Assembly (NCBI GenBank): GCA_035717985.1
Contig: DASTHW010000014.1
Span: 17,691 to 81,690, forward strand
Direction of reading: 5' to 3'
Origin: Candidatus Saccharimonadales bacterium
Lineage (GTDB): Bacteria > Patescibacteriota > Saccharimonadia > Saccharimonadales > UBA10212
Length of the DNA stretch: 64,000 bases
The notes under the pieces are model-generated. The model was not told the DNA's origin, did not search any database, and saw nothing but the letters and a program-made list of their open reading frames with translations. Numbering within the stretch: the stretch's first letter is position 1; every line of letters starts with the position of its first letter. The position numbers and the translations under genes were made by a program. Below, piece by piece: positions 14,416-61,745 of this stretch.

Positions 14416-14442
14416 TTCTTTTGCTAAGAACCAAAACCTATT

Positions 14443-14898
14443 GTTACTTTGGGCCGCCAAAGTAACCAAAGCTCTCGGCCTGCTTCAAAAACTTGATGCT
14501 CACTAAAGCTAGAAAATAGCTTGCCTAAAGAGCGCCTCCTAAAGATTGCCACCGGCAATCTTTAGTCGTTAAACATGCTTTATGCACCCAAGGGCGCTAT
14601 TTTCTTAGCCTAGCTCACTTCAGGTATTTGAAGGTGGCCGACCTTGACTCAAAATGCCGACATAAAACATATTCGACCTTTCGATTTTCGTTGTGTTCAA
14701 AAGTCGGGCATGCGAAGCTGACTTGACCGGATGAGTGTAAAACAGTCTGGGCTTGGCCTCCTGAAGATGTTTGACGAATAAATTAGCCAGCGGCTAATTT
14801 ATGAGGAGTTCTTCAGGCGAAGACTGCTTTTACTATCAGCCGCAAGTTCAGCGGAGCCCGCCCGAGAGCTTTACCCAACTTTGGCGGTCCAAAGTTGG
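14443..14898. repeat. 455-nt structured intergenic element (E1) bounded by about 36-nt inverted repeats
   Basis: GTTACTTTGGGCCGCCAAAGTAACCAAAGCTCTCGG (14443-14478) is an imperfect inverted copy of CCGAGAGCTTTACCCAACTTTGGCGGTCCAAAGTTGG (14862-14898). Interior contains perfect hairpins at 14539-14565 and 14780-14800. No ORF. Confidence 0.65.
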
Positions 14899-14907
14899 AA
14901 GTGATAT

Positions 14908-16692
14908 CTACTCTTCCAGGAAGCCGCCGGACTGGTGGCTCCATAGGCGGGCGTAAACACCTTTTTTAGCGAGTAGCTCTTTGTGGCTACCCTGCTCGGC
15001 GATCTCGCCATCCTCTAAAACGATAATCCTATCCATTTTTTGGATAGTGCTTAGCCGGTGGGCAATGATGATGGTAGTTTTATCTTCCATCAATTTCCAA
15101 AGAGCGTCTTGAATCAGTAGCTCGCTCTCACTGTCCAGCTGGCTAGTAGCCTCATCCAGCACTAAAATCGGTGCGTTTTTAAGCATGGCCCGGGCAATGG
15201 CAACGCGCTGTCTTTGGCCGCCGGACAGTTTTACGCCGCGCTCGCCAACCAACGTGCCGTAACCGTTGGTCAAGATACGGATAAACTCGTCGGCGTGCGC
15301 CAGGCTAGCCGCTTTTTCAATTTCAGATTGGTTGGCGCCAGGCTTACCATAGGCAATGTTTTCAGCTAAAGAGCGGTGAAACAGCAAAGGTTCCTGCGGC
15401 ACATAGGCTACTTCCCGGCGTAAATCATCCTGCGTAATTTCAGCTATATTTTGGCCATCTATTAATATTTGGCCGCTGTCAATGTCGGAAAATCTTAGTA
15501 GAATTCTAGTTAGCGTAGTTTTGCCGGAGCCGGAATGGCCGACTAAGCCAACTTTCTCGCCGCCGGCGATTGCCAGATTAAAGTTGGCAAAAATAGCATC
15601 ACCGGCGCCCTCATGAGTAAAGCTAACATTTTTAAATTCAATCCTGCCTTTTTTAACACGTAGCGGCTTAGGCTCGGCCGGGTCTTTGACTTCCGCTGGT
15701 ATGTCTAGGATAGCTACCATGTCGCGGGCGTCGCCCAGGGAGCGGTTGTAGTTACGCAGGGCGCTGTTACTGAATTGAAACAGTTGTGAGGTAATGCCGG
15801 CGGTGTAGTTCAAGATTAGAAAAACGGTACCGATATTGGCGCCAAAATTTACTACGCCAATTACCGCTACGGCAAAAGACAGAGCTGAAATCACACTAAC
15901 TACAGCCGAAAAGTAGCTTTGTTGTTTTTGGTGACCGCGCATCAGCGCCAGCAGGCCGTCGTGGGTGGTGGACGTAATTTTGGCAAAAGCCTTATTTTCG
16001 TATCCTTGGCCGGCAAAGCTTTTAACGTTCATGACATTGGTTACAACGTCGGCCAGGTAGCCGGTTTGGGCGCTCTCATCGGCGGCGTGCTTAGCACTCA
16101 ATCGTCGTACGGCGCGGGTTACAAAAATAGCGCTAATCACATACAAAATTGAAAAGAATAGCAGAAGCACCACAAACAGCGGTGCTCGGCCGGCTAAAAT
16201 TATGGCCGCAAAAATTAGGCTAACAGCTAGAGGCAAAACCTGAAAGATAGTAGTATCGGCCAGGCGGATGTAGGAGCCCATCAATTTGTTAGTCTGGCTC
16301 ACCAGCGAGCCGGAAAAGCGGTTAGCATGGAAGCCCATGCTCATACTCATTAGGTGATCAAATACCCGCCGGGCAATATCCTGCTCAACTTTACCCTCCA
16401 GCGTCCAGGCAAAGCGGTCAACAATCCGCCAGGCCACCACACCGCCAAACAGTACCAGAGCGGCATAAGCGATAATGTCGCCGCCAAAACTGCTCCAAAC
16501 ATGGTTACGAACATAGTCGTGCGTGCTTAGGCGGTTTAAAACCTCAGCCAAAATCAGTGGAGGCAAGAACTGGTTAACCAACACCGTCAGCGGCACAGTA
16601 ACTAGCAAGCCCACCAGCTGACGGCGCCAGCGGGTTACACAGTGCCAGTAAAAGGACACAATACGGCTTGTCTCGTTTTTGTCGACTTGCAA
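14908..16692 (-). CDS. ABC exporter, fused permease/ATPase
   Basis: GHSGSGKTT Walker A, LSGGQRQR, LVLDEATSQLD. TTG start with AGGAGG 9 nt upstream. Confidence 0.9.
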   Translation of the reverse strand: MQVDKNETSRIVSFYWHCVTRWRRQLVGLLVTVPLTVLVNQFLPPLILAEVLNRLSTHDYVRNHVWSSFGGDIIAYAALVLFGGVVAWRIVDRFAWTLEGKVEQDIARRVFDHLMSMSMGFHANRFSGSLVSQTNKLMGSYIRLADTTIFQVLPLAVSLIFAAIILAGRAPLFVVLLLFFSILYVISAIFVTRAVRRLSAKHAADESAQTGYLADVVTNVMNVKSFAGQGYENKAFAKITSTTHDGLLALMRGHQKQQSYFSAVVSVISALSFAVAVIGVVNFGANIGTVFLILNYTAGITSQLFQFSNSALRNYNRSLGDARDMVAILDIPAEVKDPAEPKPLRVKKGRIEFKNVSFTHEGAGDAIFANFNLAIAGGEKVGLVGHSGSGKTTLTRILLRFSDIDSGQILIDGQNIAEITQDDLRREVAYVPQEPLLFHRSLAENIAYGKPGANQSEIEKAASLAHADEFIRILTNGYGTLVGERGVKLSGGQRQRVAIARAMLKNAPILVLDEATSQLDSESELLIQDALWKLMEDKTTIIIAHRLSTIQKMDRIIVLEDGEIAEQGSHKELLAKKGVYARLWSHQSGGFLEE

Positions 16693-30847: not shown

Positions 30848-30899
30848 ACCAAAGAGTCCGGCTTGCCCGGGCTTTTTGGTTGGTATGTTGAATGACTAG

Positions 30900-30988
30900 T
30901 AACTCACGGCCTCTTCAAAATAAAACAATCTGGCCATGCGCCCATGACCCGCCAGGGTCATGGGCTTTGAGTCTCATCACCCGCACCA
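30900..30988. repeat. Rearranged shards of the tRNA-Gly 3' half
   Basis: 30900-30916 is the exact reverse complement of tRNA positions 30811-30827 (17 nt). 30969-30988 is an exact direct copy of the last 20 nt (30828-30847). Confidence 0.75.
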
Positions 30989-31005
30989 AGATGACACCAA
31001 TGATT

Positions 31006-31033
31006 GCTCCCTATCAAGGGAGCTTTTATTTTT
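31006..31033 (+). terminator. Rho-independent terminator
   Basis: GCTCCCT-ATCA-AGGGAGC followed by TTTTATTTTT. Confidence 0.7.
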
Positions 31034-31166
31034 CTTGATTGAGCCGTCGGTTTCCAACCTGCGTCCCGTGAAGTTGACCTCACGAGACAAAATCTCCCAT
31101 TTTACAGATTGAAAATACGGTTTCAACTCTCAAAAATTTGACTCAGCAAATGCTATAGTACAAAAG

Positions 31167-34138: not shown

Positions 34139-34337
34139 CAGCAGTTACGATACTAGTACGCTCTAGCTCGGCAGAAGAGTTCCAGATAGCTTCAACAAAA
34201 GCCCGGCAAACCGTTACAACTATATAAATATTGCCCAGCATTTGTCGGCTAAAACCTTATGCTGCACCTCTGAGAAAAGTTACACTTTCACAAATTGTGT
34301 TGCACCATATACATGTAACATTAAAGTCTAAGGGTAG

Positions 34338-35069: not shown

Positions 35070-35219
35070 TATGGTGTAAAAAGTTATAACCTTCTCGGCT
35101 CATGTTGTAGTCGATACTATAACAAAGCAGAATAACTTCTAAGCGCAGTTACACTTTCACGAATAATGCTACACCATATTTGTAAACTTCTTTAAGGAGT
35201 TTTTTGTTACGATAAATAT

Positions 35220-44466: not shown

Positions 44467-45333
44467 TTGTACGAACAAATTTCTGCCAACAAGCGGCGCA
44501 CCTGGTTTTTGATGCTGGCATTCGTGGTGGTGGCCTGGGCGCTAGCCTTCATAATTGGCAAGGCTCTGGGTAGTATCGATTTTCTATTCATAGTTGGGAT
44601 TTTGTCTTTGGTTTACGCCGGCTATAGCTATTTTGCCGGGGCTAAGATGGCACTGGCACTAAACGGGGCCAAAGAGATTCAAAAAGCCGACGATCCGCGG
44701 CTATGGCGGACAGTTGAAAATCTATCAATCACCGACGGTCTACCTATGCCCAAGGTCTATATAATGGACGACCCGGCACCTAACGCTTTTGCTACCGGCC
44801 GTGACCAGAACCATTCCGCCGTCTGTGCTACCACCGGCCTGCTAAGAATAATGGATGATACCGAACTTCAGGGAGTGATTGCCCACGAACTGGGGCATGT
44901 CAAAAATTATGACATTAAAGTTAATACTCTCGCCTTTGCCCTGGTAGGCATTATTTCGCTAATTGCTGATTTCTTTTTGCGGTTTGCTTTCTTCGGCGGC
45001 GAGCGGGAGGAACGCAACCAGCAATTAGCTATTTTAGCCCTAGTGGCGGCCATTTTGGCGCCAATTGCCGCCAGCCTACTACAGCTGGCTATTAGCCGCC
45101 GGCGGGAATATCTGGCTGATGCTACAGGTGCTTTGACGACCCGCTACCCCGAAGGCCTAGCCAGTGCCCTGGAAAAGCTGGAAGATGTCAGCACGGCTAC
45201 TAGAAAGCAAAATACCTCAACGGCCCATATGTTTTTTGCCAGCCCACTTCGCGGCCACAGCCTGCTTAATTTATTTAGCACCCACCCGCCGCTGGAAGCC
45301 CGCGTCAAGGCCCTCCGAGAGATGAAACTATAA
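44467..45333 (+). CDS. htpX: Zinc metalloprotease HtpX (M48)
   Basis: HELGHV zinc motif, 4 TM topology, TTG start. Confidence 0.88.
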   Translation: MYEQISANKRRTWFLMLAFVVVAWALAFIIGKALGSIDFLFIVGILSLVYAGYSYFAGAKMALALNGAKEIQKADDPRLWRTVENLSITDGLPMPKVYIMDDPAPNAFATGRDQNHSAVCATTGLLRIMDDTELQGVIAHELGHVKNYDIKVNTLAFALVGIISLIADFFLRFAFFGGEREERNQQLAILALVAAILAPIAASLLQLAISRRREYLADATGALTTRYPEGLASALEKLEDVSTATRKQNTSTAHMFFASPLRGHSLLNLFSTHPPLEARVKALREMKL

Positions 45334-45394
45334 CCTTTCATACTTTTGTACGACAAAGCAATGCTTTTTTCTTTTCCAAAGAAACAAATTCTTT

Positions 45395-45523
45395 GCCACC
45401 TTTTGCCGAAAAGGTGGCGCCAAACTCTCAGCGGCTGAAAAACTAAGAGCATCATAGCTTACCCAAAAAGCGGGCCAAGCCGAACGCCCTCGCTGACGCT
45501 CGGTTAAACATGCGTTTGGCGTC
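45395..45523. repeat. Structured intergenic element (E2) of the GCGCCAAA/TTTGGCGC family
   Basis: GGCGCCAAAC (45416-45425) pairs with GTTTGGCGTC (45514-45523). There is a 10-bp hairpin GCCACCTTTT-GCCG-AAAAGGTGGC. It shares the 11-mer GTTAAACATGC with E1. Confidence 0.55.
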
Positions 45524-45601
45524 TGCTTTTTAAGTGTCGCTAGGCCTTCTGTTTTTCAGATGCTGAAGGTTAAAACGGATGATTTTCGATATAATATAGC
45601 T

Positions 45602-46555
45602 ATGGCAAATGCGGCGGTAAAAAAGCGGCCAGAACCGGTTTTTAGACCCGGTCGTACCCGCAGACTCAATAAAAAGCAGGCTAAGACCAAAGCTAAGGCC
45701 GAAGCTAGAGCCAATACTCCGGTGCCGAACAGCTTTCGGTTGACCGCTCAGGTGGCTGGTATTTTCAAGAAAAATTGGAAGATTCTGCTGGGCATCGTAG
45801 TTGTCTATCTGATTTTAAATATCATTTTTGCCAGCGGCCTATCGGGGCTAGGTAATGCTGTTTCAACCATCAAAGTTGATCTAAAAAATGCCAACGGCGG
45901 CGGCCAAGCCCTAGCTAAAGGCATCAGCGGCTTTGGCTCTTTGGTGGGTAGCGCCGGGGCTTCTGGATCGGCCAGCGCTGGGATTTTGCAAAGCGTGCTG
46001 TTTGTGTTGGAGAGTCTGGTGATTATTTGGTCACTGCGCCAACTGCTGGCCGGCAAGACAATTGGCGTTAAGGAGGCTTATTACCACTCAATGTTTCCGT
46101 TGATACCATTTCTTTTAGTGCTGGCTGTAATTATTATTCAGCTTTTGCCAATAACCATTGGCGCGGCTGTGCTTAGCGCCGTACTGACTAGTACGGTCTC
46201 CAGCCTGACGCTGGCTAGCTGGCTATCTTGGATTTTCTTTATTTTGCTGGCCGGCTGGTCTTTTTATATGGTCAGCGGTTCGATTTTTGCCGCCTATATT
46301 GTCACCCTGCCGGATATGGCACCGCGGGACGCTCTACGCTCTGCCCGCAACTTAGTTCGCTTTCGACGCTGGCAGATTTTGCCTAAAATCTTGTACCTGC
46401 CGGTTTTTATTTTGATCGTTATGGCCATTATCATCGTGCCGCTAATTATTTTTGCTTCCTTTTTGGTGGCGCCGGTTTTTTATGTGCTTAGCATGCTGGC
46501 GATTTTGTTTGTTCACTCCTATTTATATAGTCTGTATCGAGGCTTACTGGAATGA
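45602..46555 (+). CDS. Hypothetical polytopic membrane protein
   Basis: ATG 45602 lies 6 nt after TATAAT (45590-45595). Lys-rich N-terminus then about 6 TM helices. Confidence 0.6.
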   Translation: MANAAVKKRPEPVFRPGRTRRLNKKQAKTKAKAEARANTPVPNSFRLTAQVAGIFKKNWKILLGIVVVYLILNIIFASGLSGLGNAVSTIKVDLKNANGGGQALAKGISGFGSLVGSAGASGSASAGILQSVLFVLESLVIIWSLRQLLAGKTIGVKEAYYHSMFPLIPFLLVLAVIIIQLLPITIGAAVLSAVLTSTVSSLTLASWLSWIFFILLAGWSFYMVSGSIFAAYIVTLPDMAPRDALRSARNLVRFRRWQILPKILYLPVFILIVMAIIIVPLIIFASFLVAPVFYVLSMLAILFVHSYLYSLYRGLLE

Positions 46556-48564
46556 CCGATACGCCGGCTGAGCGGGCCGCGCGCTTGCGCGAGCTTATTA
46601 ACGATTACCGTTATAACTATCATGTCCTGAATAAATCAATCATGAGCGAGGCGGCGGCCGACAGCCTAAAGCACGAGCTTAGTCAGATTGAAGCCGAGTA
46701 CCCGGAGCTAATTACGCCGGATAGCCCCACCCAGCGGGTGGCCGGCGAGCCCCTGCCAGGTTTTAGCCAGATCCGCCACTCGGCTAGGATGCTGTCGCTT
46801 AACGACGTTTTTAATGAAGAAGAGTTTAGGGCCTGGGTGGCGCGCATAACTAAACTAGCCGGTACGGATAAGTTCGACTATTTTGTAGATTTAAAGATGG
46901 ACGGCCTAGCCTGTGCACTGGTTTATCAAGACGGCGTGCTGGCCCAAGGCATAACCCGGGGCGACGGCTTTACCGGCGAGGATGTGACCGCCAATATCCG
47001 GACTATTGAATCGGTGCCTCTCCGGCTACGCAGGGCTAAAGGCTATGAGGAATTTCTATCCGGCCGGACAGAAATTCGGGGTGAGATCATTATGTATAAA
47101 GACCAATTTGCCAGGCTGAATGAAGCGCGTGAGAAGCAGGGTCTACCCAAATTTGCCAACCCGCGTAATCTAGCGGCTGGCACCATCCGCCAGTTAGACC
47201 CCAGGCTGGTAGCCGCCCGGCCACTGCAGTTCCATGCCTATGATTTACTGCGGGAAGACCTGGCCGAGACGCCAACTAATGAATTTATATATAAAGCCCT
47301 GCGCGAGCTGGGTCTAATTGCTAATAGCCAAGCTAAAAGAATTGAAAGCGTAGCCGGTGTGCTGGATTTTGCCCGGCAATGGGAAGATAAGCGTAAAAAT
47401 CTAGCCTTTAATACGGACGGCCTGGTGGTAAAGGTAAATGACCGGCGAGCGCAGGCCCGGCTAGGCGTAGTCGGCAAAGCACCGCGCGGCGCCGTAGCTT
47501 ACAAATATCCGGCAGAGCAGGCTACAACTAAAGTTAAGGATATTTTTGTCAGCATTGGCCGCACCGGCTCGGCTACGCCAGTAGCTATGCTGGAACCGGT
47601 GGTTGTAGCCGGCAGTACCGTACAAATGGCCACGCTTCACAACGAGAGCGAAGTTCACCGCAAAGACATCCGCGTTGGCGATACGGTGATAGTCCAAAAA
47701 GCCGGCGATATTATCCCCGAGGTGGTTGAACCCCTGGTTAAGCTACGTGATGGCTCGGAAAAAAAATTTGTGATGCCGGCTCATTGTCCGGACTGCGGGA
47801 CTAAGTTAGTTAAAGCCAAAGCCGAAGAGGCGGTATGGAGGTGCCCGAATAATGCCTGCCCATCAAGGAGCTGGAAGCAAATCCAGCATTATGCCAGCAA
47901 GGAAGCACTGGATATAGACGGCTTGGGCGAAAAGAATGTCATTGCCTTACTAGCCGCCGGGCTAGTAAATGACAGCGCCGATTTATACAAACTTAAAAAA
48001 GAGGATGCGCTAAAGCTAGAGCGCTTTGCCGAAATTAGCGCCGGCAAATTAGTGGCGGCCATCCAGGCTAAGCGTCGGCCCACACTAGCTCGGTTCCTTT
48101 ATGGGCTGGGCATCCGGCATATCGGCGTACAGACGGCTATAGATTTAGCTAGTCATTTCCACTCTATAGATAAACTGGCGAAGGCTACCATTGACGAATT
48201 ATCAGAGGTAGAAGGCATTGGCGAGGTGGTGGCTGAGGCGGTGGTAGAATGGTTTGCCGAGCCGGCTAACCAAAAGTTGTTAGAAAAATTTGGCAGATAT
48301 GGTGTAGAGCCGGAGAAGGCGGAAGCTATTAGCGGGCCGCTGGCCGGCAAAAATTTTGTGGTTACCGGTTCACTGGAATCCATGAGCCGGGAGCAGGCGG
48401 CTGAGCGCATCCGGAATCGAGGCGGCACCTTTCAGTCCAGTGTCGGCAAAGAGACCGATTATTTAGTGGTGGGCGCTAACGTAGGTGCTGGTAAATTGGT
48501 CAAAGCCCAAAAGTTAGGCACCAAGCGGATTACAGAGGCAGAGCTGATAAAACTGCTGGATTAA
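46552..48564 (+). CDS. ligA: NAD-dependent DNA ligase
   Basis: Adenylation motif KMDGLA, OB fold, Cys4 zinc finger (CPDCGTKL...CPNNACP), HhH repeats, C-terminal BRCT. Confidence 0.97.
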   Translation: MTDTPAERAARLRELINDYRYNYHVLNKSIMSEAAADSLKHELSQIEAEYPELITPDSPTQRVAGEPLPGFSQIRHSARMLSLNDVFNEEEFRAWVARITKLAGTDKFDYFVDLKMDGLACALVYQDGVLAQGITRGDGFTGEDVTANIRTIESVPLRLRRAKGYEEFLSGRTEIRGEIIMYKDQFARLNEAREKQGLPKFANPRNLAAGTIRQLDPRLVAARPLQFHAYDLLREDLAETPTNEFIYKALRELGLIANSQAKRIESVAGVLDFARQWEDKRKNLAFNTDGLVVKVNDRRAQARLGVVGKAPRGAVAYKYPAEQATTKVKDIFVSIGRTGSATPVAMLEPVVVAGSTVQMATLHNESEVHRKDIRVGDTVIVQKAGDIIPEVVEPLVKLRDGSEKKFVMPAHCPDCGTKLVKAKAEEAVWRCPNNACPSRSWKQIQHYASKEALDIDGLGEKNVIALLAAGLVNDSADLYKLKKEDALKLERFAEISAGKLVAAIQAKRRPTLARFLYGLGIRHIGVQTAIDLASHFHSIDKLAKATIDELSEVEGIGEVVAEAVVEWFAEPANQKLLEKFGRYGVEPEKAEAISGPLAGKNFVVTGSLESMSREQAAERIRNRGGTFQSSVGKETDYLVVGANVGAGKLVKAQKLGTKRITEAELIKLLD

Positions 48565-48565
48565 T

Positions 48566-49222
48566 ATGAATAAGAAACAGATAATCGCAAAAACCAAAGA
48601 CTATGTGGAGCAAAAGTTTGCTAGCGACAGCAGTGGCCATGATTGGTGGCATATCTACCGGGTTTGGCGTCTGGCCAAGCATATTGCCGCTCAAGAAAAG
48701 AGCGCCGATCTTTTTATTGTCGAGCTAGCGGCTCTACTTCATGACATTGCGGACTGGAAATTTGCAGACGGAGATTTAGAAACCGGCCCAAAAGCGGCTA
48801 GGGCCTGGCTAGCTAGCCTTGAAGTAAACGAAAAAGTAATAACGGCCGTTGAAGATATCATCCGGAACGTGTCGTTTAAAGGTGCCAATGTTAAGAGCGA
48901 CTTGAAGACCATCGAAGGTCAAATTGTCCATGACGCCGACAAGCTGGACGCTATCGGCGCCATCGGTATCGCCAGATGTTTTGCCTTTGGCGGATCGGTG
49001 GGTAATAAAATGTATGACCCAGCCCAAAAACCGGTTCTTCATAGCTCCTTTGATGAATATAAAAAAATGGGATCTTCGTCTATAACCCACTTTTATGAAA
49101 AATTACTACTGCTAAAAGACCGGATGTTTACTGAAACCGGCCGGCAAATGGCCGTTAGCCGCCACGAATTTATGGAAAAATATCTGGAAGAATTCTACGG
49201 CGAGTGGGACGGCAAAATATGA
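48566..49222 (+). CDS. HD-domain phosphohydrolase
   Basis: H...HD (LLHDIADW) ... D (HDADKLDAIG) metal-binding pattern. Confidence 0.8.
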   Translation: MNKKQIIAKTKDYVEQKFASDSSGHDWWHIYRVWRLAKHIAAQEKSADLFIVELAALLHDIADWKFADGDLETGPKAARAWLASLEVNEKVITAVEDIIRNVSFKGANVKSDLKTIEGQIVHDADKLDAIGAIGIARCFAFGGSVGNKMYDPAQKPVLHSSFDEYKKMGSSSITHFYEKLLLLKDRMFTETGRQMAVSRHEFMEKYLEEFYGEWDGKI

Positions 49223-49300
49223 ATCCCGTTAGAACTAAGTATTTTATTAAAAATAAAATCTGCCGCTTTACTGTTTGCAGTAAAGCGGAGTTCTAACGGG

Positions 49301-49855
49301 ATGAACGTAACATTTATAACCGGTAATCCCAAGAAAGCAGAATTTTTGAAAAAGTATCTTGGCGTAGAGCTAAGTCATCAAAAGCTGGATTTGGATGAGC
49401 TCCAGTCATTATCTTTGCGCGAAATAACGGAGCATAAAGTTAAGCAAGCTTTTGAGCTTGTGCAGGGGCCAGTGCTGATAGAAGACATCGGCTTTTCAAT
49501 CATGGCCATGAGGAGGTTACCGGGACCGTTTATCAAATGGTTTATTGGCGAGATTGGCTTTGAGAAACTTTGCCGTCTAGCAGACGCCGACCCCTCGCGC
49601 CTGGCTGAAACATCAGTCTGCTATGCCTACTTTGACGGCGCTAGGCTGGAATTTTTTGAGGGAAGCCAAAAAGGCATCTTGCCAGACCACCCAAGAGGAG
49701 ACGATGGTTTTGGCTGGAATGGAATTTTTATACCAGAGGGTCAAGGGAAGACGATTGCCGAGATGGATGAGACGGAGATGGAGAAGTATTCTCTACGTAC
49801 CACCACAGTTTATCCGCAGATTAAAAAATTCCTGGCCACACTTGACAATAGCTGA
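49301..49855 (+). CDS. Non-canonical purine NTP pyrophosphatase (HAM1/RdgB family)
   Basis: FITGNPKKAEF N-terminus and DDGFGWNGIFIP near the C-terminus. Confidence 0.8.
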   Translation: MNVTFITGNPKKAEFLKKYLGVELSHQKLDLDELQSLSLREITEHKVKQAFELVQGPVLIEDIGFSIMAMRRLPGPFIKWFIGEIGFEKLCRLADADPSRLAETSVCYAYFDGARLEFFEGSQKGILPDHPRGDDGFGWNGIFIPEGQGKTIAEMDETEMEKYSLRTTTVYPQIKKFLATLDNS

Positions 49856-49879
49856 GCATAAGCGTGTAATAAGCATAAG

Positions 49880-50009
49880 CTTCGCGCACCAAGGAGCCCT
49901 TGAAATGCGCTAGCAAAAATAAAAACGCCCACCGTCTAAGGTTCGTCATATCGGATTTTGGATGCGAAAATAAAGCTTGCCCGGGCTCCTATGGGTGGGC
50001 TGCGCGAAG
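49880..50009. repeat. Structured intergenic element (E3) of the same inverted-repeat family
   Basis: CTTCGCGCACCAAGGAGCCC (49880-49899) pairs with GGGCTCCTATGGGTGGGCTGCGCGAAG (49983-50009). Confidence 0.55.
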
Positions 50010-50013
50010 AAGC

Positions 50014-50041
50014 AAAAGCTCGTCAAACTAGACGAGTTTTT
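50014..50041. terminator. Bidirectional rho-independent terminator
   Basis: AAAAGCTCGTC-AAACTA-GACGAGTTTTT has U-runs on both strands. It lies between a + strand gene and the - strand tRNA-Ala. Confidence 0.7.
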
Positions 50042-50074
50042 GTGATTTTAACGGGGCCGATATTAGTTCTGGAG

Positions 50075-50151
50075 TGGTGGAGATGGGGGGAGTTGAACCC
50101 CCGACCTCCGCAATGCGAATGCGGCGCTCTAGCCAACTGAGCTACATCCCC
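50075..50151 (-). tRNA. tRNA-Ala (CGC)
   Basis: Cloverleaf with anticodon loop TTCGCAT, G3:U70 identity pair, encoded CCA. Confidence 0.9.
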
Positions 50152-51460: not shown

Positions 51461-52141
51461 ATGAGACTAAACGCCTATTTGGCCAGGGCGGGGTTGGCGT
51501 CGCGCCGCGGCGCCGACGCTTTAATTAAAGCCGGCAAGGTGACAGTTAATGGCCACCAAGGCCAACTTAACGATCAAGTAACCGACGATGATGAGATTAA
51601 GATAGACGGACGACTGGTTCAGGAGCAAAAGCCGCGCTATATACTGCTTTATAAACCGGCTGGCTATGTAAGCACGCTGGCCGATCCGCAGGGCAGGCCC
51701 AAGGTAACCGACTTAATTGATATATCTGAGCGGGTGGCGCCGGTAGGGCGGCTGGACTTTAATACCACCGGGGCACTGCTCTTAACTAACGACGGTCAGC
51801 TGGCCCACAAACTAGCGCACCCCAGCTTTGAAATTGACAAGGTTTATGAAGCCAAAGTGCGCGGTAAAATTACTCCAGAAATACTTAACAAGTTAAGTAT
51901 CGGTGTAGAGTTTGACGGCAGAGTGTCGGCGCCGGCCAAAGCTAAAGCCCTACCTGACAATGTAGTAGAGCTGACTATTCATGAAGGCAAAAAGCATCAG
52001 GTCAAAAAAATGCTAGCGGCTGTGGGTCTACCGGTAGTAAAACTGCGCCGCACCAAATACGGCCCGCTAACACTAGCTGGCTTAAAGCCGGGGCAGTGGC
52101 GAGAGCTGTCGCCCGGTGAAATCTCTAACCTGCTACAATAA
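51461..52141 (+). CDS. Pseudouridine synthase, RsuA/RluB family
   Basis: N-terminal S4 domain (RLNAYLARAGLASRRGAD) and catalytic GRLDFNTTG motif. Confidence 0.9.
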   Translation: MRLNAYLARAGLASRRGADALIKAGKVTVNGHQGQLNDQVTDDDEIKIDGRLVQEQKPRYILLYKPAGYVSTLADPQGRPKVTDLIDISERVAPVGRLDFNTTGALLLTNDGQLAHKLAHPSFEIDKVYEAKVRGKITPEILNKLSIGVEFDGRVSAPAKAKALPDNVVELTIHEGKKHQVKKMLAAVGLPVVKLRRTKYGPLTLAGLKPGQWRELSPGEISNLLQ

Positions 52142-54414: not shown

Positions 54415-57400
54415 ATGAAACGTTATAATCCGCAGGAGCTTGAGCCCAAGTGGCAAAAAATTTGGGCAGAGTCGGGCATTTATAAGACTGACATGAGCCG
54501 GGTATCAGATAAGTTTTATACCATCCCGATGCTACCGTACCCGTCTGGTGATCTGCATATCGGCCACTGGTATAACTATGTTGGCGCTGACAGTGTAGCC
54601 CGCTGGCGGCGCCTGCTAGGCCAAAATGTTTTTACGGCTTTAGGGTTTGATGCTTTTGGTCTGCCGGCAGAAAACGCCGCCATTAAGCGCGGCCTCCAGC
54701 CGGCTAAATGGACGAGAGGCAATATTAAATCAATGAAAGAGCAGATTGCTAAAATTGGCGCCAGCTATGACTGGGACCACAGCTTAATTACCTGCGACCC
54801 CGAATATTACCGCTGGAACCAATGGCTATTTTTAAAACTATATGAAAAAGGTCTGGCCTACCGCAAGAAGGCGATGGTCAACTGGTGCCCTAAAGACCAG
54901 ACTGTGCTGGCTAACGAGCAGGTGGTTGGCGAAAACAATGTTTGCGAGCGCTGCGGTACGCCGGTTATCCAAAAAACGCTACCGCAGTGGTTCTTCAAAA
55001 TTACCGACTATGCCGACCGCCTACTGGACGACCTGGATGAAGTTAATTGGCCTCAGCGGGTTAAGACCATGCAGGAGAACTGGATTGGGCGAAGCCGCGG
55101 GGCACTTATTAAATTTGCAGTAGAAGACTCAAAAGAGAATTTTATTGAGGTATTCACTACTCGGCCAGATACTATTTATGGTGCCACCTTCATGGTCGTA
55201 GCGCCTGAGCACAAAATACTTAACAAGTTAAGTATCTCCAAGGAAGTTGAAAAATATATTGAGCAGGCCAAGCGAAAAACCGAGCTGGAGCGCAAAGCCG
55301 GCGAGAAGGATAAAACTGGCGTCTTTAGCGGCCTTTATGCCATCAACCCGGCTAACAAAAAGAAAATTCCAATCTGGGTAGCCGATTATGTACTGATGAG
55401 CTACGGCACTGGCGCCATCATGGCCGTACCGGCCCACGACGAGCGTGATCACGAATTTGCTACGAAATTTGACCTGCCGATTGAGCCGGTTATCATTCAG
55501 GATTTTGGCGAACCTTTGCCCGATGAGCATTATGTTGAAGGAGTAGTGGTTATTCCTTATGACCCCAAGACCAAAAAATACCTGGCTCTGGGCGGCTGGA
55601 ATCAGGGTATTGGTTTGGTCGGCGGCGGCCGTGAGAGTGCGGAAAACCTAAAGCAGTGCGCCGCCCGTGAACTTGAAGAAGAGGCCGGCATTGCCAGCTA
55701 TGAGGCATTAATATCGCTGGGAGACCCAGTTTATTCTCATTACCATAACGATTTAAAGAAAATTAACCGCCGCTCGCTGGGGCAGGGTTACTTGGTAGTT
55801 ACCGATAGCCAAGCTAAAACTAAGAAACCGGCGCTGGAAGCCCACGAGAAGTTTAAGGCCGAGTGGATGGATATGGCCGATATCCGGGCCGGCATTACCA
55901 AACTTGGCGGCGGCACCCAGCACTGGTTAGAGATGACTGAGCGAGCTGAACGAGCCGCGGCCGATTATGAGGCAGGGCGTATTTACCAGCCGGCGCCCTA
56001 CAGCGGCGAGGGCGTTTTGATTAATTCTGATAAGTATGACGGCTTAAGTTCGGCAGAGGCTCGGGAAAAAATTGTCACTGATTTGTCCGGCGCTGGAGAT
56101 GATGAGCCGGTATTTGAACAGACCACTGGCTCCAGTGCGGTGAAAAAGGGTCAGCCGTTTGTGGAGCGCCAAGCTATTACAGCTATTGTTAAACACTGGT
56201 CCGAGGACAAGTACATCGGCCTGAAATGGAAAACGGTGGACTGGGAAACGTTGATTACCGGCGGTATCGAGAAAGGTCAAACGGCCGAGCAGGCGGCCAT
56301 TGCCGAAATTCGCGAGGAAACCGGCTACCAGAACCCTAAGCTGGTCAGAGTGCTTGGCAAAAACCATGCCAAATTCTTTCATGTGCCCAAAAATGAAAAT
56401 AGATTTGCGCACTTTACTTGCCTTTTGTTTGAGCTGGCTGACGGCGAGCGCGAGCAGGTAAGCGCTAAGGAACAAAAAAACCACGAGGTGGTCTGGCTGA
56501 CGCCGGCTCAGATGGAAAAGTTCGATTTGCCACAGTCGCACCGTCATATTTGGGACCAAATAAGGAAAGGCTCTGGCGGCCTGGCCCGCGCTCAAACCAA
56601 TTACCGTCTGCGCGACTGGCTGATTAGCCGCCAACGATATTGGGGTACACCTATCCCCATAATTTACTGCGATAAATGCGGCATCCAGCCGGTAAGCGAA
56701 AGCGACCTGCCGGTGATACTGCCTGAAGATGTGGAGTTTGAGCTATCTGGCCAGTCGCCGCTTGTCAACCGGCCGGATTTTGTTAATACTAAATGCCCCA
56801 ACTGTGGCGGGCCAGCAAAGCGCGAGACCGACACCATGGACACTTTCATGGATTCCAGCTGGTATTTCCTGCGCTATATCGACAATAAGAATGATAAAGC
56901 GGCTTTTGATACCAAGCTTATCAACCAGTGGGCGCCGGTCGATCACTATCTAGGCGGTATTGAGCACGCCATCTTGCATCTACTTTATGCCCGCTTTATG
57001 GTTAAGTTTCTGCATGATTATCACGGTCTAACTTTTACCGAGCCGTTTAAAAGACTGACCAACCAAGGCATTATTTTAGGCCCAGACGGCCAAAAGATGA
57101 GCAAGTCCCGCGGCAATGTTGTCAGCCCCGATGAGCAGGTAAAGAGCTACGGCGCTGACAGCTTGAGACTCTACATGCTGTTTATGGGTCCGTATGACCA
57201 AGGCGGTCCTTATAGTCTTGGCGGCATAGCCGGAACGCGCCGGTTTTTGGATAGAGTTTGGACACTTTTAGGGGAATACTTAGAGTCACCGGCGGAACCT
57301 ATAGCCGATATGGACGAGGTAGCTATAACGGCGGCGGTCCACCGGGCTATCAAGAAAGTGACCAATGATATCGAGGCACTTAACTTTAATACGGCTATTG

Positions 57401-57807: not shown

Positions 57808-57892
57808 ACTTGTCTTTCAGAGGTGTTTTTTGCTAAAATTAAGCCAAGTTAGCAGGTATTAACTCTAGCAGTAAAAGGAGTAAATAAGCCAA

Positions 57893-58036
57893 GTGGGCAA
57901 GCCCAAGAAACGAACTAGTTCCCGGCGCAGTGGTATGCGCAGAAGTCACCAGCTAGCCAAGCTAGCCCGGCGTGTTAATGCATTGAGCCCGGTTAAGGTT
58001 GGCGCCAAAAAGGCTAAAACCGGCCCCAGCGCTTAA
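57893..58036 (+). CDS. rpmF: 50S ribosomal protein L32 (47 aa), absent from the ORF track
   Basis: GTG start with AAAGGAG 13 nt upstream. VGKPKKRTSSRRSGMRRSH matches the L32 PKxRxSxxRRxxRRxH signature. Confidence 0.8.
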   Translation: MGKPKKRTSSRRSGMRRSHQLAKLARRVNALSPVKVGAKKAKTGPSA

Positions 58037-58187
58037 ATTTTTAGTATCGTCCGCCTACTACCGGCGGAGTATACTTTAAAGCAGTAGCTAACCCTCAAAT
58101 ACAAAGGACTTAACAATATGGCTAAAGTTTGCGTTAGTAGATTAGCAAAACCGGCAAGCAGTAGCATGCCAGCCGGGAGGGAAGAAT

Positions 58188-59208: not shown

Positions 59209-59916
59209 ATGGATGTATCAAAGTATCAGACTTTTGCTGACCAGCATTTTGGCGGCTTTAGTGATATTGGTCTTTTAATCACCGCCTTTACTCACCGAAG
59301 CTATATTAATGAGCATAAAAAAACGGCCTCTGAACATAATGAGCGCTTAGAATTTTTAGGCGACGCCGTTTTGGAGTTGGTGGTGACTGAGCATCTTTAT
59401 AACAACTATAAAGAGCCAGAAGGCGTTTTAACTAACTGGCGAAGTGCGCTGGTGCGGACGGAAAGCATCAGTGCCGCTGCCGATAGAGAAGGTTTTGAAT
59501 CTCTTCTTAGGCTGTCGCGTGGTGAGCGGCGGGCGGCCTCACCGCGGGCCCGCGAACAAATTTTAGCCAACTCTTACGAGGCGGTGATTGGCGCTCTTTA
59601 TTTAGACAAAGGTTATGAGGCCGCCCGGGAGTTTATTAGCCGGACGCTTCTGCCGGTCTTGCCGCAAATTTTAGAAACCGGAGCCTGGCTGGATCCTAAA
59701 TCCCGCCTGCAGGAGCTGGTTCAAAGCCATGAAGATGCTACACCGGTCTATAAAGTATTGAGCGAGGAAGGGCCGGACCATGACAAAACCTTTGTGGTCG
59801 GCGTTTTTGTAAGCAATGATTTGAAGGGGGAGGGGTCGGGGCCGAGTAAGCAGGCCGCGCAGGTCGCCGCCGCCTCTACCGCCCTCCAAGCTTACGTGAC
59901 GCACCAACCAAACTAA
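59209..59916 (+). CDS. rnc: Ribonuclease III
   Basis: Signature ERLEFLGDAVL and a C-terminal dsRBD (GPDHDKTFVVGV...GSGPSKQAAQVAAA). Confidence 0.95.
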   Translation: MDVSKYQTFADQHFGGFSDIGLLITAFTHRSYINEHKKTASEHNERLEFLGDAVLELVVTEHLYNNYKEPEGVLTNWRSALVRTESISAAADREGFESLLRLSRGERRAASPRAREQILANSYEAVIGALYLDKGYEAAREFISRTLLPVLPQILETGAWLDPKSRLQELVQSHEDATPVYKVLSEEGPDHDKTFVVGVFVSNDLKGEGSGPSKQAAQVAAASTALQAYVTHQPN

Positions 59917-60051
59917 GCAAAAGCTTAGCTTTGGGCTGGTGCTTTTGGGATATTACTGCGTCAGAACCTCAAGCTACTCGCTCCCAGTATTCCCATACAG
60001 CTCGCTCTTAGCTCGGCTCTTCCTGGTACTACCCTAAAACACGTAAGCTTG
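59887..60051. repeat. Structured intergenic element (E4), homologous to E5
   Basis: 12-bp perfect outer stem CAAGCTTACGTG (59887-59898) / CACGTAAGCTTG (60040-60051). Inner hairpin GCACCAACCAAA...TTTGGGCTGGTGC followed by TTTT. Core is about 70% identical to E5 by eye. Confidence 0.6.
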
Positions 60052-60164
60052 AAGTTAGAGATTGCTCGCTTTCTCCTTGCGCTACCTTCAAACGGTGTAT
60101 TTCGGGGACCCACACCTGCCTTAGTTGACAACAGGGGTGCTTATCTGTAAAATTACTTAGACCT

Positions 60165-60727: not shown

Positions 60728-61207
60728 ATGGCTGTCAGCATAGACCAGCAATTCATTGAATATATCGTAAAATCCCTCGTCAGTGAGCCCGACGCCGTCA
60801 AAATTGAGCGGCGCATAGATGAAAAAGGCGTGCTGTTAGAGCTAACGGTTGCGCCGGAAGACCTAGGTCGAGTAATCGGTAAGCGTGGTGCTACCGCTCA
60901 GAGCTTGCGCACTCTGCTTAGGGCATTAGGTACTAAAAACGACGCTAGGTACAACCTCAAGATTATAGACGTTGGCGGCCCCCGCCCAGCCCGCTCTACG
61001 GACAATTCTGCGCCGGCTCAGGCGGATGATTCAAAGCCAGCCAGCCAGCCAGAGCCGGCCGATGAGCCAGCCGACGATGACGCCAGCGAGCCCCAGGATG
61101 TTGGCCAGGCTACCAAAGACGACACACCTGCTAGCAGTGACGACAAAAAAACCCTAGCCGAAAAGACTAGGGCTGAACTGGCTGAGCTAGACGACTTAGA
61201 CGTCTGA
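60728..61207 (+). CDS. KH-domain RNA-binding protein (YlqC-like) with acidic C-terminal extension
   Basis: VKIERRIDEKGVLLELTVAPEDLGRVIGKRGATAQSLRTLL (GxxG KH motif), SD AGGAGG, usual position after rpsP. Confidence 0.85.
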   Translation: MAVSIDQQFIEYIVKSLVSEPDAVKIERRIDEKGVLLELTVAPEDLGRVIGKRGATAQSLRTLLRALGTKNDARYNLKIIDVGGPRPARSTDNSAPAQADDSKPASQPEPADEPADDDASEPQDVGQATKDDTPASSDDKKTLAEKTRAELAELDDLDV

Positions 61208-61210
61208 CAA

Positions 61211-61364
61211 CTTCAGGCCGCGCCAAAGTAAGCCAAGCAAAGCTCGTCTTGCTTTAGTGCTTCTGGCGCCTTACGGCGTCAGCGGCTCCAGTGCTCCCTC
61301 ACAGTATTTCGATACTGCTCAGTCCGCGCTTTGCCGCTTCCTTGTAATGCAATCAAACCTGAAG
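61211..61364. repeat. Structured intergenic element (E5), homologous to E4
   Basis: Outer stem CTTCAGG (61211-61217) / CCTGAAG (61358-61364). Inner stem GCGCCAAAG (61220-61228) / CTTCTGGCGC (61260-61269). It shares TTAC[TG]GCGTCAG and CAGTATT cores with E4. Confidence 0.6.
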
Positions 61365-61396
61365 CTGTCAGCTTGGAGGGCAGGGAGATTAAAATT

Positions 61397-61654
61397 TTAG
61401 TATTTCCAGCCGTTGGTAGATAACAGGCCGCGGGCCAGAGCTTTCTCATACTCGGGGAACCAGCGGTCCTGCAGTAAAGCTCTTAGGCCATCTACTACCA
61501 ATTTATTCTCCCAAGGCGATAGCTGAAACGGTACTTCGCGGCTATCTACATCTCTTGATAAATCAAATTTGCCCAACCGCCGAAGGGCAAACGAGCTTAA
61601 AGACAAAGCCGGCTCATCTTTAACTGTAATTTCGCTCTTTTCGGCACCAGCCAT
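61397..61654 (-). CDS. Hypothetical protein (85 aa)
   Basis: Only ORF in the KH-trmD gap. No SD or family recognised. Confidence 0.4.
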   Translation of the reverse strand: MAGAEKSEITVKDEPALSLSSFALRRLGKFDLSRDVDSREVPFQLSPWENKLVVDGLRALLQDRWFPEYEKALARGLLSTNGWKY

Positions 61655-61745
61655 AATAACTATATAATATCACCGTCAAGCATAAAAAGCGAATTTATGA
61701 TAAGGATAGTGCAGTATCGCCAGCTTTTGCTAAGATAGTACTTGA

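Follow-up and report, generated by a model that had tools for sequence, protein, structure and literature searches.

Small repeats conserved in structure and scattered between genes are familiar from several bacterial groups. ERIC/IRU in the enterobacteria and bcr1 in the Bacillus cereus group consist of imperfect palindromes without coding function, about 100-200 nt long, present in several copies in the intergenic space beside genes and variable in presence between relatives. Their structure is kept by compensatory changes, suggesting a role at the level of RNA. The Correia elements of Neisseria (NEMIS), the pneumococcal RUP (MITEs) and the Rickettsia palindromic elements are small, non-autonomous, dispersed, foldable and strain-variable, and can overlap the ends of coding sequences. 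Integron attC sites are likewise structure-conserved imperfect palindromes, which start at, or shortly past, the stop codon that ends the preceding ORF and whose functional folded strand is antisense to it; together with the palindromic elements derived from IS200/IS605, they are examples of systems in which hairpins are recognised.

Here we analyse a window of 64,000 nt from a Candidatus Saccharimonadales contig, in which a sequence-only reading had picked out five intergenic regions (E1 to E5). Four of the five (E1, E2, E4 and E5) are two families of structured repeats, type A and type B. Both resemble ERIC/IRU and bcr1 in being non-coding, multi-copy and intergenic, in being present or absent between relatives, and in their compensatory changes. 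They differ in having no sequence similarity to those elements, with neither matched in Rfam searches; in their architecture, which is three-way in type B and hairpin-plus-arm in type A; in a closing helix that varies per locus and often holds the neighbour's stop codon; in the lack of target-site duplication and a selected strand antisense to the upstream gene; and in their host, a reduced-genome member of the Saccharibacteria. Like NEMIS, RUP and the Rickettsia elements they are small, dispersed, foldable and gained or lost, and E4 overlaps the coding end of rnc. Unlike MITEs, they have terminal inverted repeats that are not conserved in sequence, no target-site duplication and no partner transposase that we could see, and the compensatory changes by which their orthologous copies diverge point to structure being selected at each site.

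Two families of elements in the window

Every string quoted earlier for E1 to E5 is present where it had been placed, and the regions fold beyond shuffled controls (z = -9.9 for the E1 intergenic region, -3.9 for E2 and -3.5 for E3; about -5 to -7 for the E4 and E5 elements). The proposal that one family is united by GCGCCAAAG/CTTTGGCGC arms fails, since the motif is not enriched: GCGCCAAAG with at most one mismatch has 43 matches, the majority inside coding regions, against 32.5±5.7 in shuffles. There are instead at least two families. Homology within the window is confined to two groups, E1-left with E1-right and E2, and E4 with E5; types A and B do not detect each other by profiles or covariance model, and neither matches any family in Rfam 15. 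The features are as follows.

14417..14643, minus strand: type A copy E1-left (family alignment with E1-right and E2; nhmmer matches)
14702..14917, plus strand: type A copy E1-right, inverted (134-nt inverted similarity to E1-left; family alignment)
45367..45570, unstranded: type A copy E2 (family alignment, profile matches, fold)
49880..50009, unstranded: E3, a stem-closed structure (CTTCGCGCA/TGCGCGAAG and AGGAGCCC/GGGCTCCT) after a Ham1-family gene
50013..50042, unstranded: ordinary bidirectional terminator hairpin (CAAAAGCTCGTC...GACGAGTTTTTG), separating E3 from tRNA-Ala (minus strand, 50075-50151)
59883..60056, minus strand: type B copy E4, between rnc and rpsP (covariance-model match, 135.6 bits)
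60057..60124, unstranded: extra sequence separating E4 from the rpsP promoter (empty-site comparison; relatives have no counterpart)
61150..61174, minus strand: strong terminator-like hairpin with T-run, within the KH coding sequence at its 3' end
61202..61374, minus strand: type B copy E5, between a KH-domain gene (khpA-like) and trmD (covariance-model match, 159.1 bits)

Type A elements are about 200-220 nt long and consist of a terminal hairpin and a long irregular arm built around the core GAACTCCTC-[variable hairpin]-TTCGTCAAACAT. The three window copies are homologous (nhmmer E = 5e-7 and 8e-3) and can be aligned, with compensatory hairpins. In E1, 134 nt of inverted similarity (14446-14576 versus 14895-14767) relate E1-left to E1-right, so that this region holds two convergent copies of one element. 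It had been described as a pair of arms enclosing a 400-nt cargo; each arm is in fact its own local 10-bp hairpin, ACTTTGG-GCCG-CCAAAGT at 14446-14463 and a near-twin on the minus strand at 14895-14878. Both copies adjoin the stop codon of their own gene, E1-left that of rplY (plus strand; stop at 14413-14415) and E1-right that of a minus-strand ABC transporter gene (14908-16692). The strand listed for each is the better-folding one and is antisense to that gene (fold energies of -92.7 on the minus strand versus -80.9 on the plus strand for E1-left, and -90.0 on the plus strand versus -82.1 on the minus strand for E1-right). E1-left comprises hairpin 1 (14443-14466), the long arm (about 14475-14641), a tip hairpin (14539-14565) and the core GTTAAACATGC (14568-14578); hairpin 1 is followed by AATAGGTTTT and was flagged as terminator-like on the minus strand. 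E1-right has hairpin 1 at 14875-14898 and its tip hairpin at 14778-14802, and just upstream of it lies a weak sigma-70-like match (9/12; 14644-14673, plus strand).

E2 begins 34 nt past the stop of an M48/HtpX peptidase gene (44467-45333, plus strand) and has the same parts: hairpin 1 with a GCCG loop (45395-45418), the long arm (45436-45559) and the core GTTAAACATGC (45503-45513). The differences between its hairpin 1 stem and that of E1 are compensatory changes. The idea of enclosing arms does not hold here either, as in the minimum-energy fold the 3' arm first noted, GTTTGGCG, pairs with CCCAAAAAGC inside the long arm and not with the quoted 5' arm. Strand asymmetry is absent from E2.

Type B elements, of about 170 nt, combine a closing helix P1 (12-15 bp), a side hairpin (P2) and a long arm (P3) whose GUAU/AUAC tip is invariant. 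The P1 sequence is different at every locus and often includes the neighbour's stop codon. E4 and E5 share 69% identity over 103 nt (blastn E ~1e-8 against the whole window), and the arms first noted in them are real, being the P2 hairpin of this larger element. In E4, P1 pairs 59887-59898 with 60040-60051, P2 spans 59901-59942 and P3 59943-60039; TTTTGG follows P2 on the plus strand. The element supplies the last six codons of rnc, whose 3' end (VTHQPN and the stop at 59914-59916) lies inside it. Its fold energy is -80.9 on the minus strand versus -61.2 on the plus strand. The rpsP promoter, TTGACA-17-TAAAAT, lies at 60125-60153, and judging from the empty sites of relatives the extra sequence before it may have arrived together with E4. 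In E5, the KH stop codon (TGA, 61205-61207) falls within P1 (61204-61217 paired with 61358-61371), P2 spans about 61220-61269, and P3 (61270-61357) carries the invariant tip as GTAT...ATAC; the fold energies are -75.4 (minus strand) versus -67.6 (plus strand). The hairpin at 61150..61174, found at this copy only, lies past the 3' end that E5 has in antisense orientation, at a distance of about 30 nt, and could end an antisense E5 transcript.

E3 stands apart. Its closing inverted repeat is real (9+8 bp), no homologue was found in 1.7 Mb of related sequence fetched, and it has no detectable membership of type A or type B. Among the words said to be shared between regions, GTTAAACATGC proves to be the conserved type A core and AAGCAAA(A)GCT the P2 loop of E4 and E5; the 'AAGCAAAAGCT' credited to E3 belongs to the separate terminator hairpin at 50013..50042.

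Conservation of structure and the folding strand

In both families shape is conserved rather than sequence. In the model-fitted type B alignment, 93.4% of cells pair versus 68.4% in shuffles, and double changes occur at 42 of 48 pairs. When 34 copies are aligned independently with MAFFT in antisense orientation, the values are nearly the same (93.2% versus 67.7% shuffled; 51 of 56 pairs with double changes), with slid controls at 29-44%. Orthologous copies also differ by compensatory changes, which indicates that selection keeps each copy folded: P1 is retained through double changes between E5 and its orthologue in L003 and again between L102 and L124, including G.U to U.G changes that can be read as such on the antisense strand alone.

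Three lines of evidence, from wobble pairs, from the purine-rich loops and from folding energy, indicate that the folding strand is antisense to the abutting gene. On the gene-sense strand, type B shows 61 A.C or C.A mismatches versus 29 G.T. Conserved wobble pairs appear on the antisense strand only: one pair is U.G in 27 of 34 copies, and at another G.U outnumbers G-C by 20 to 13. The unpaired bases of P3 are 80% pyrimidine on the gene strand, that is, purine on the antisense strand, and 30 of 31 copies fold more stably as the antisense strand, the mean difference being 14.4 kcal/mol. For type A, where the evidence comes from about nine distinct copies, covariation is also found in hairpin and arm, and the antisense fold is more stable in seven of eight copies.

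Gain and loss among relatives

The expectation that the repeats recur in related genomes was borne out for both families. A pattern scan of metagenomes yielded 43 loci with 48 type B copies, several also with type A; L112, L115 and L125 carry two type B copies each and L134 three. Density reaches three copies in 6 kb in these loci, compared with five in 64 kb here. On contigs also bearing type B, type A was detected with first-pass nhmmer E-values of 9e-19, 9e-8, 2e-7 and 5e-5, and one contig with both types belongs to the Saccharibacteria, since its MnmA protein is 80-82% identical to that of named members. Both families are those of soil-type Saccharibacteria. Copies from the same genome (L008a and L008b; E4 and E5) are more alike than copies across genomes.

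At the corresponding sites close relatives have no element, so that, by these sequence comparisons, copies are gained and lost among them. Type B was present around rnc in 3 of 80 related loci fetched, and 76 of 80 rnc neighbourhoods, with the window's own counted, are without it. The rnc-rpsP gap in relatives is typically about 50-150 nt, and in five of the seven closest only 0-10 nt separate the rnc stop from the rpsP promoter. The KH-trmD gap is 10 nt in L004, and rplY is followed by a gap of 28 nt in the closest relative. At the mnmA site, three relatives have the stop, 0-4 nt and then a promoter (gap 18-23 nt), and L115 has an insertion of about 165-170 nt (gap 190 nt). We looked for target-site duplications and conserved terminal repeats and found neither; the element ends have no sequence conservation. 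No transposase, reverse transcriptase or integrase was seen near the elements in the loci examined, few decayed relics were found, and the genes on either side are not cassettes but housekeeping genes whose order is conserved.

Position relative to genes, promoters and terminators

The elements fill the space that separates the stop codon of one gene from the promoter of the next. A long same-strand ORF ends near P1 or inside the element in 23 of 40 type B copies (within -5 to +6 nt of P1 in 18, inside the element in 5), and seven of eight type A copies lie 0-60 nt after a stop codon. The 3' position claimed for the window copies thus stands, and extends to other genomes; that the preceding gene is always on the plus strand does not, as E1-right, one of six copies, follows a minus-strand gene. 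By crude gene calls, the elements tend to be antisense to both neighbours (19 cases versus 5), a preference that is unusual for expressed RNA genes. We found no consistent promoter for the antisense strand, and around E4 and E5 a promoter scan of the minus strand came out empty; the -10-like boxes at a distance of 31-44 nt most plausibly belong to the promoter of the next gene.

The elements share with intrinsic (Rho-independent) terminators their gene-end site and GC-rich hairpins, and some sub-hairpins are terminator-like (type A hairpin 1 on the antisense strand; P2 of E4, followed by TTTTGG on the plus strand). They are nevertheless 170-220 nt long and multi-helical, with conserved loop sequences, and type B has no consistent terminator on either side: 33 of 37 copies are without a hairpin and T-run on either side. 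Such a signal follows just 1 of 37 copies when the gene strand is read and 3 of 37 when the opposite strand is, so these are not terminator hairpins of the ordinary kind.

Discussion

Our best reading, held with middling confidence, is that types A and B are two related families of structure-selected interspersed non-coding repeats, kept in the slot between stop codon and promoter and acting as antisense folded RNA. Family membership, structure, covariation, strand asymmetry, insertion polymorphism and position are directly supported; transcription, RNA rather than single-stranded DNA, the mode of copy spread and function are what we infer. The elements probably act as RNA, and their wobble tolerance and purine loops would also fit folded single-stranded DNA.

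A second reading, which we consider unlikely, takes its analogy from attC sites and the IS200/IS605-derived palindromic elements: the elements might be mobile DNA that does not move by itself, its folded single strand being recognised in trans by a recombinase or transposase, with structure kept for mobility and no RNA function. As in attC, structure counts over sequence, and an imperfect palindrome starts at or shortly past the preceding stop codon with its folding strand antisense to the upstream ORF. Presence varies between close relatives, several copies occur per contig, copies are most alike within a genome, and the absence of target-site duplications and of conserved ends fits single-strand hairpin systems; nor did we find a promoter or terminator for an RNA. 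Against mobility as the sole reason for the fold, orthologous copies keep their pairing by compensatory changes after speciation, which implies selection per locus and not only on mobile copies, and decayed relics are few. The conserved housekeeping neighbourhoods form no arrays, none of the loci examined has an integrase or transposase, the attC core consensus is not conserved (the family has GTCAAAC, not GTTRRRY), and type B is larger and three-way branched. It is somewhat less probable still that these are multi-copy genes for a trans-acting small RNA, for example one that titrates a protein through repeated GGA and GAG loops, with the stop-codon position a by-product of genome compaction. 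The very strong covariation and the purine-rich loop nucleotides conserved on one strand would suit such a gene, as would the promoter-like sites upstream of E1-right, the strong terminator beyond E5, and the antisense layout of type A, in two of three window copies a structured body and then a 3' hairpin whose tail is rich in U. The density of copies is unusual for trans-acting small RNAs, however, most relatives are empty at the same loci, consistent promoters and terminators were not found, and RNAs with a different P1 at each locus would not be identical.

The sequence-only reading implied a plus-strand 3' UTR, and gene-strand structures of the upstream mRNA, serving as terminators or as stabilisers against 3' exonucleases like REP and ERIC, might be expected exactly where the elements lie, from the same-strand stop codon to just before the next promoter. 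The gene strand is also what would be transcribed if upstream transcription passed the stop codon, it still takes the same shape (-45 to -90 kcal/mol), and in E4 it offers the TTTTGG after P2. Yet the conserved fold is carried by the antisense strand: A.C mismatches are twice as frequent as G.U pairs on the gene strand, which has no conserved wobble pairs, has pyrimidine-rich loops and folds 14 kcal/mol worse. A terminating ribosome would moreover open P1, and the near-absence of hairpin and T-run is a further objection. We regard this role as doubtful, on a par with the small RNA genes. Chance likeness among GC-rich hairpins, with no family at all, is very improbable. The lack of motif enrichment, the solitary E3 and the mutual blindness of types A and B all lean towards it, but homology within each family is highly significant and reaches independent assemblies and metagenomes, and covariation is far outside controls. 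Chance similarity is refuted for E1, E2, E4 and E5, and is the best account only of E3's supposed link to the others.

In our best reading, copies survive only in the one permissive slot of a packed genome, the few bases from a stop codon to the next promoter, which explains why they always follow a gene. Selection then keeps each copy folded at its own site. In the common layout, with both neighbours on the other strand, the RNA would be read leftward out of the neighbouring promoter region and form a stable structured module ending at the upstream gene's stop codon. Such a module may be a barrier, a processing site or a protein-binding site at the boundary of transcription units.

The view that an interspersed, non-coding structured repeat sits at gene 3' ends in this small genome is supported, as is the suspicion that no such family had been described: full-text literature searching gave no description, and Rfam 15 holds no counterpart. 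Type A and type B, without a match in that database or the searchable literature, are carried by some Saccharibacteria.

Results

Two families of elements

The statement best supported by our analysis is that the elements form two families of structure-selected interspersed repeats: type A (both halves of E1, and E2), in which a first hairpin is followed by a long arm, and type B (E4 and E5). The sequence-only reading had taken five intergenic regions, E1 to E5, as one family built on GCGCCAAAG arms. Every string it quoted is found in the window. The single family, however, is contradicted by motif counts and by profile and covariance models, which do not detect type A, type B and E3 across one another. 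The unifying word GCGCCAAAG is not enriched: with at most one mismatch allowed it has 43 occurrences, most of them inside genes, where shuffled sequence gives 32.5±5.7. Types A and B do have a GGAGUU(U)C motif in common. The features discussed here are:

14446-14463, left hairpin of E1 (E1-left, type A), ACTTTGG-GCCG-CCAAAGT
14895-14878, minus strand, right hairpin of E1 (E1-right, type A), ACTTTGG-ACCG-CCAAAGT
E2 (type A), after an htpX-like gene
E3, after a Ham1-family gene
E4 (type B), folding on the minus strand, between rnc and rpsP
E5 (type B), folding on the minus strand, between a KH-domain gene (khpA-like) and trmD
61150-61174, minus strand, strong hairpin and T-run in the KH-domain gene, within the coding sequence of its variable C-terminus, just beyond the antisense 3' end of E5

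Type B: copies and structure

E4 and E5 can be aligned over 103 nt with 69% identity (E ~1e-8 against the whole window). A profile of these two copies matched three of 80 related loci around rnc (L003, L038 and L008, the last with two copies), and a covariance model built from six copies found none beyond the profile matches in the same 1.36 Mb, so that type B appears sporadically among relatives. A 24-base pattern from the conserved core, for which we estimate less than one chance match, identified 43 loci in JGI metagenome contigs. The covariance model recognized 48 copies in them, 37 of them distinct, with two or three on some contigs; one of these contigs is assigned to Saccharibacteria by its MnmA protein. 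We also considered a viral origin, and the 15 matches in viral contigs consist of the pattern alone without extension and were judged to be chance.

In the type B consensus a closing helix of 12-15 bp (P1) is joined by a side hairpin (P2) and a long arm (P3); P3 has conserved internal loops at several places, and its tip, GUAU...AUAC, is invariant. The arms originally reported for E4 and E5 are real and form one hairpin, P2, within a larger unit. Covariation is very strong. In the model-fitted alignment 93.4% of cells are paired against 68.4% after shuffling, with double changes in 42 of 48 pairs; an independent MAFFT alignment of 34 copies gives 93.2% against 67.7%, with double changes in 51 of 56 pairs. 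None of 500 shuffles reaches the observed pairing, and slid controls of the MAFFT alignment are 29-44% paired.

On one metagenome sequence (L125 2070-3991, equal to L134 829-2750) murJ lies between two inverted type B copies, at its stop and its start, and a type A copy follows after about 150 nt, an arrangement that resembles a composite unit.

Type A and E3

E1 had been described as paired arms enclosing cargo. Each arm proves to be a self-contained 10-bp hairpin, and the left 130 nt of the gap are an inverted copy of the right 130 nt, which accounts for the extreme folding z-score of the gap (-9.9) and identifies E1 as two convergent copies of one element, one after rplY (+ strand) and the other after an ABC transporter gene (minus strand). 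E2 aligns to both over ~165 nt and has the same parts: a 10-bp hairpin, looped by RCCG and differing from that of E1 through compensatory changes in its stem; then the linker CCAAA-CTCTC; and, after another, variable hairpin, GTTAAACATGC. The core of the family, GAACTCCTC-[variable perfect hairpin]-TTCGTCAAACAT, lies within the long arm, and both hairpin 1 and the arm covary.

A profile from the three window copies alone, searched against the metagenome contigs fetched for type B, matched L123 (E = 9e-19), L128 (9e-8), L119 (2e-7) and L130 (5e-5), and a second iteration added L125/L134, L132 and L136. The two types occur on the same contigs, at times adjacent (L125/L134, L136), and the recurrence of these elements outside the window is confirmed for both families by the scans of related loci and metagenome contigs. 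As judged from sequence, type A looks like a small RNA gene, having promoter-like sites and, behind hairpin 1, a U-rich tail. A terminator scan of the window flagged hairpin 1 of E1-left (minus strand) and the site inside the KH-domain gene, and nothing else.

E3 resembles none of the other regions by window alignment, nhmmer or covariance model. We considered that it might be a degenerate type B copy; nhmmer finds nothing, and the covariance model with filters off aligns the adjacent terminator hairpin alone, which leaves the idea unsupported. The closing stem of E3, TTCGCGCA/TGCGCGAA, does resemble the inner P1 of type B (TTCGCA/TGCGAA), and E3 carries TTCGTCATATC at the place of the type A TTCGTCAAACATC. 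The fetched loci offer no orthologous site for comparison with E3, as synteny of its Ham1-family neighbour is not kept there. E3 is a separate stem-closed structure adjoining an ordinary two-way terminator.

The folding strand is antisense to the abutted gene

Four observations agree that the strand that folds is antisense to the gene that the element abuts. On the gene strand of type B, A.C and C.A mismatches (61, over many pairs) outnumber G.T (29); read on the opposite strand, the former become G.U pairs. The antisense reading also contains conserved wobble pairs that are impossible on the gene strand, one being U.G in 27 of 34 copies and another alternating between G.U (20 copies) and G-C (13 copies). 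The unpaired positions of P3 are 80% pyrimidine on the gene strand, hence 80% purine on the antisense strand, where they form GAG/UGA-type loops that could hold tandem G.A pairs. Finally, the antisense fold is the better one in 30 of 31 type B copies, by a mean of 14.4 kcal/mol, and in 7 of 8 type A copies. Deamination biases linked to transcription or replication would drive the mismatch asymmetry in the opposite direction, and we therefore read it as selection.

Position, gain and loss

The placement of copies at gene 3' ends, as first reported, holds in both families. A long gene-strand ORF ends close to or inside 23 of 40 distinct type B copies, its stop falling between -5 and +6 nt relative to the start of P1 in 18 and inside the element in 5; for type A, the stop codon of a same-strand gene lies 0-60 nt before the element in 7 of 8 copies. 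The TGA of the KH-domain gene forms part of P1 of E5. In E4, P1 and P2 take in the rnc stop and the six codons before it (VTHQPN), which is why the RNase III C-terminus (59887-59916) is unlike that of all relatives. The upstream ORFs in L038 and L131 likewise end within a type B copy.

Filled and empty sites were found among relatives at rnc-rpsP, KH-trmD, rplY and mnmA. The rnc-rpsP gap measures 248 nt in the window, against a typical ~50-150 nt in relatives; among the seven closest, five have the rpsP promoter 0-10 nt after the rnc stop. The KH-trmD gap of L004, without the element, is 10 nt, and the rplY gap of the closest relative is 28 nt. At mnmA, the stop is followed in three relatives by 0-4 nt and then by an extended -10 box and the start codon, and L115 has ~165-170 nt extra exactly between stop and promoter. 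Where a stop codon touches the next promoter, we think that their junction is the only slot in which an insertion survives; in our view this is why the elements always follow a gene, with no need for targeting. The flanking genes (rplY, htpX-like, rnc, rpsP, khpA-like, trmD, murJ, ftsA and mnmA) stand in an order common to relatives.

Target-site duplication was not detected: the longest direct repeats in 12-nt flanks are distributed as in flanks re-paired among copies (n=34). The outer P1 (at least 6 bp) differs at every locus, with complementarity alone kept, whereas the inner P1 is moderately conserved; outer pairing continues 1-3 bp past the model more often than chance. In orthologous copies (E5 and L003; L102 and L124) P1 has stayed paired: it has undergone double substitutions and, as read on the antisense strand, exchanges of G.U for U.G. 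This upkeep, seen in sequence comparison, argues for locus-by-locus selection on pairing.

Flanking signals and neighbourhood

It had been proposed that the copies might act as terminators. No consistent terminator flanks type B on either strand: a hairpin with a T-run follows the gene-strand end in 1 of 37 copies and the antisense end in 3 of 37. A conserved antisense promoter was also considered and is not supported, as the -10-like boxes enriched 31-44 nt away fall on the next gene's own promoter. The flanking genes are housekeeping genes; a scan of them, covering the 64 kb of the source genome and loci of up to 20 kb from others, revealed no transposase, integrase or reverse transcriptase.

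Two further observations concern the KH-trmD gap. An 85-aa minus-strand ORF between E5 and trmD (61397-61654) matches nothing in Pfam; it is overlapped by the trmD promoter, a good sigma-70-like site (61641-61668, +), and may not be a real gene. In many relatives (L005-L008, L011, L012, L014, L019) the gap holds a ~60-nt motif, AGCTCaTTGCGAGCC-loop-GGGAGCTTTATGTGA (for example L012 ~8985-9045), followed by a terminator. The motif is absent from the window, has no Rfam match and may be another undescribed small RNA.

Host and other features of the window

The 80 best relatives of the RNase III are almost all labelled Saccharibacteria or Patescibacteria, the closest being 76% identical, which places the host, as far as protein similarity indicates, in Saccharibacteria (TM7) without a close sequenced relative. 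The L25 protein of the window has an identical counterpart in an NCBI MAG labelled Candidatus Saccharimonadales. The window is 49.5% G+C with tightly packed genes, and an Rfam 15 scan of all of it at the gathering threshold returned 9 tRNAs and nothing else.

Several features lie apart from the elements. The initial 25 nt of tRNA-Gly(GCC) occur a second time exactly 177 nt upstream (30594-30618 and 30771-30795), in an unusually long gene-poor stretch (~30434-31166) that also contains the gene; this could be the scar of integration or excision at a tRNA. A 23-nt near-palindrome, AAATACTTAACAAGTTAAGTATC, occurs three times (51879-51901 and 55214-55236, identical; 16888-16910 at 87%), with two copies inside long ORFs by ORF coordinates, and could be a protein-binding site. 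A 45-nt direct repeat at 78% identity (34266-34310 and 35135-35179) has its two copies in separate intergenic regions, 869 nt from each other; a promoter or operator common to both is possible. The 380-nt gap at 57808-58187, ~1 kb upstream of rnc and after a 1130-aa gene, has no ORF of at least 60 aa and no Rfam match; it is conserved in 42 related loci (nhmmer E down to 7e-17) and could be an unannotated RNA or small gene.

Discussion

The elements resemble MITEs in being 170-220 nt long, free of ORFs and dispersed (three type A and two type B copies in the window, up to three type B copies within 6 kb on other contigs), with filled and empty sites between relatives. Unlike MITEs, they have terminal repeats that are not conserved in sequence and no target-site duplication. 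They are nearest in kind to ERIC, bcr1 and Correia-type repeats. REP and REPIN (RAYT) units are palindromes of 20-40 nt, often paired and with a conserved head, whereas these elements are longer and multi-helix. Nor are they canonical intrinsic terminators, in which a U-tract comes straight after a GC-rich hairpin. As in structured non-coding RNAs generally, compensatory changes support the structure beyond controls. Permissive Rfam 15 scans of E1, E2, E3 and E4-E5 gave nothing above chance. For the 490-nt E1 gap, RNase P, SRP, 6S RNA and tmRNA were rejected on gathering-threshold and permissive Rfam scans and ARAGORN. Analogies with retrons, guide RNAs (omega or bridge RNA) and group II introns were set aside because no reverse transcriptase, nuclease or recombinase gene is adjacent to any copy. 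In the literature covered by our search, neither interspersed repeats nor lineage-specific structured RNAs are described for Saccharibacteria or the Candidate Phyla Radiation.

We describe the elements as lacking MITE hallmarks and as having a putative functional strand antisense to the neighbouring gene, and we favour a candidate role at the RNA level, at the boundary between transcription units; type A looks like a small RNA gene, and E5 has a good terminator past its antisense 3' end. A serious rival is that they are a folded single-stranded DNA substrate. Their geometry is that of integron attC sites, structure-conserved palindromes after an ORF stop whose folded strand is antisense to the ORF. 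However, the attC core sites (RYYYAAC / GTTRRRY) and size (57-141 bp) are not matched: GTTAAAC occurs in E1-left and E2, the type A family consensus is GTCAAAC, and type B has no attC-type core sites. Nor do the examined loci contain cassette arrays or an integrase, and the neighbours are housekeeping genes in conserved order. A role in RNA could work as follows. Transcription from the downstream gene's symmetric promoter region would yield an antisense RNA that folds at once into a stable three-way structure. At each locus, the closing helix would be fitted to the sequence around the stop codon of the upstream gene. The module would then serve as an insulator or processing site that keeps antisense transcription out of the upstream gene. 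It is tempting to speculate that the elements are a hitherto unrecognised, Saccharibacteria-specific class of structured antisense RNA modules, or else a new ssDNA-folding recombination site spread through housekeeping operons; we consider so specific a claim rather unlikely.

The elements give rise to annotation errors, through spurious ORFs and altered C-termini such as that of rnc. Type B covariation rivals that of many accepted RNA families, yet type B is absent from Rfam, which makes it a ready candidate for a new RNA or repeat family. Saccharibacteria genomes, at ~1 Mb, contain hardly any spare DNA, and several non-coding copies of 170-220 nt in 64 kb are therefore a real cost. The odd combination of a locus-specific closing helix over a neighbour's stop codon, an apparently antisense functional strand and no transposon hallmarks raises the question of whether selection may have kept a selfish repeat folded for some benefit that it brings where transcription units meet.
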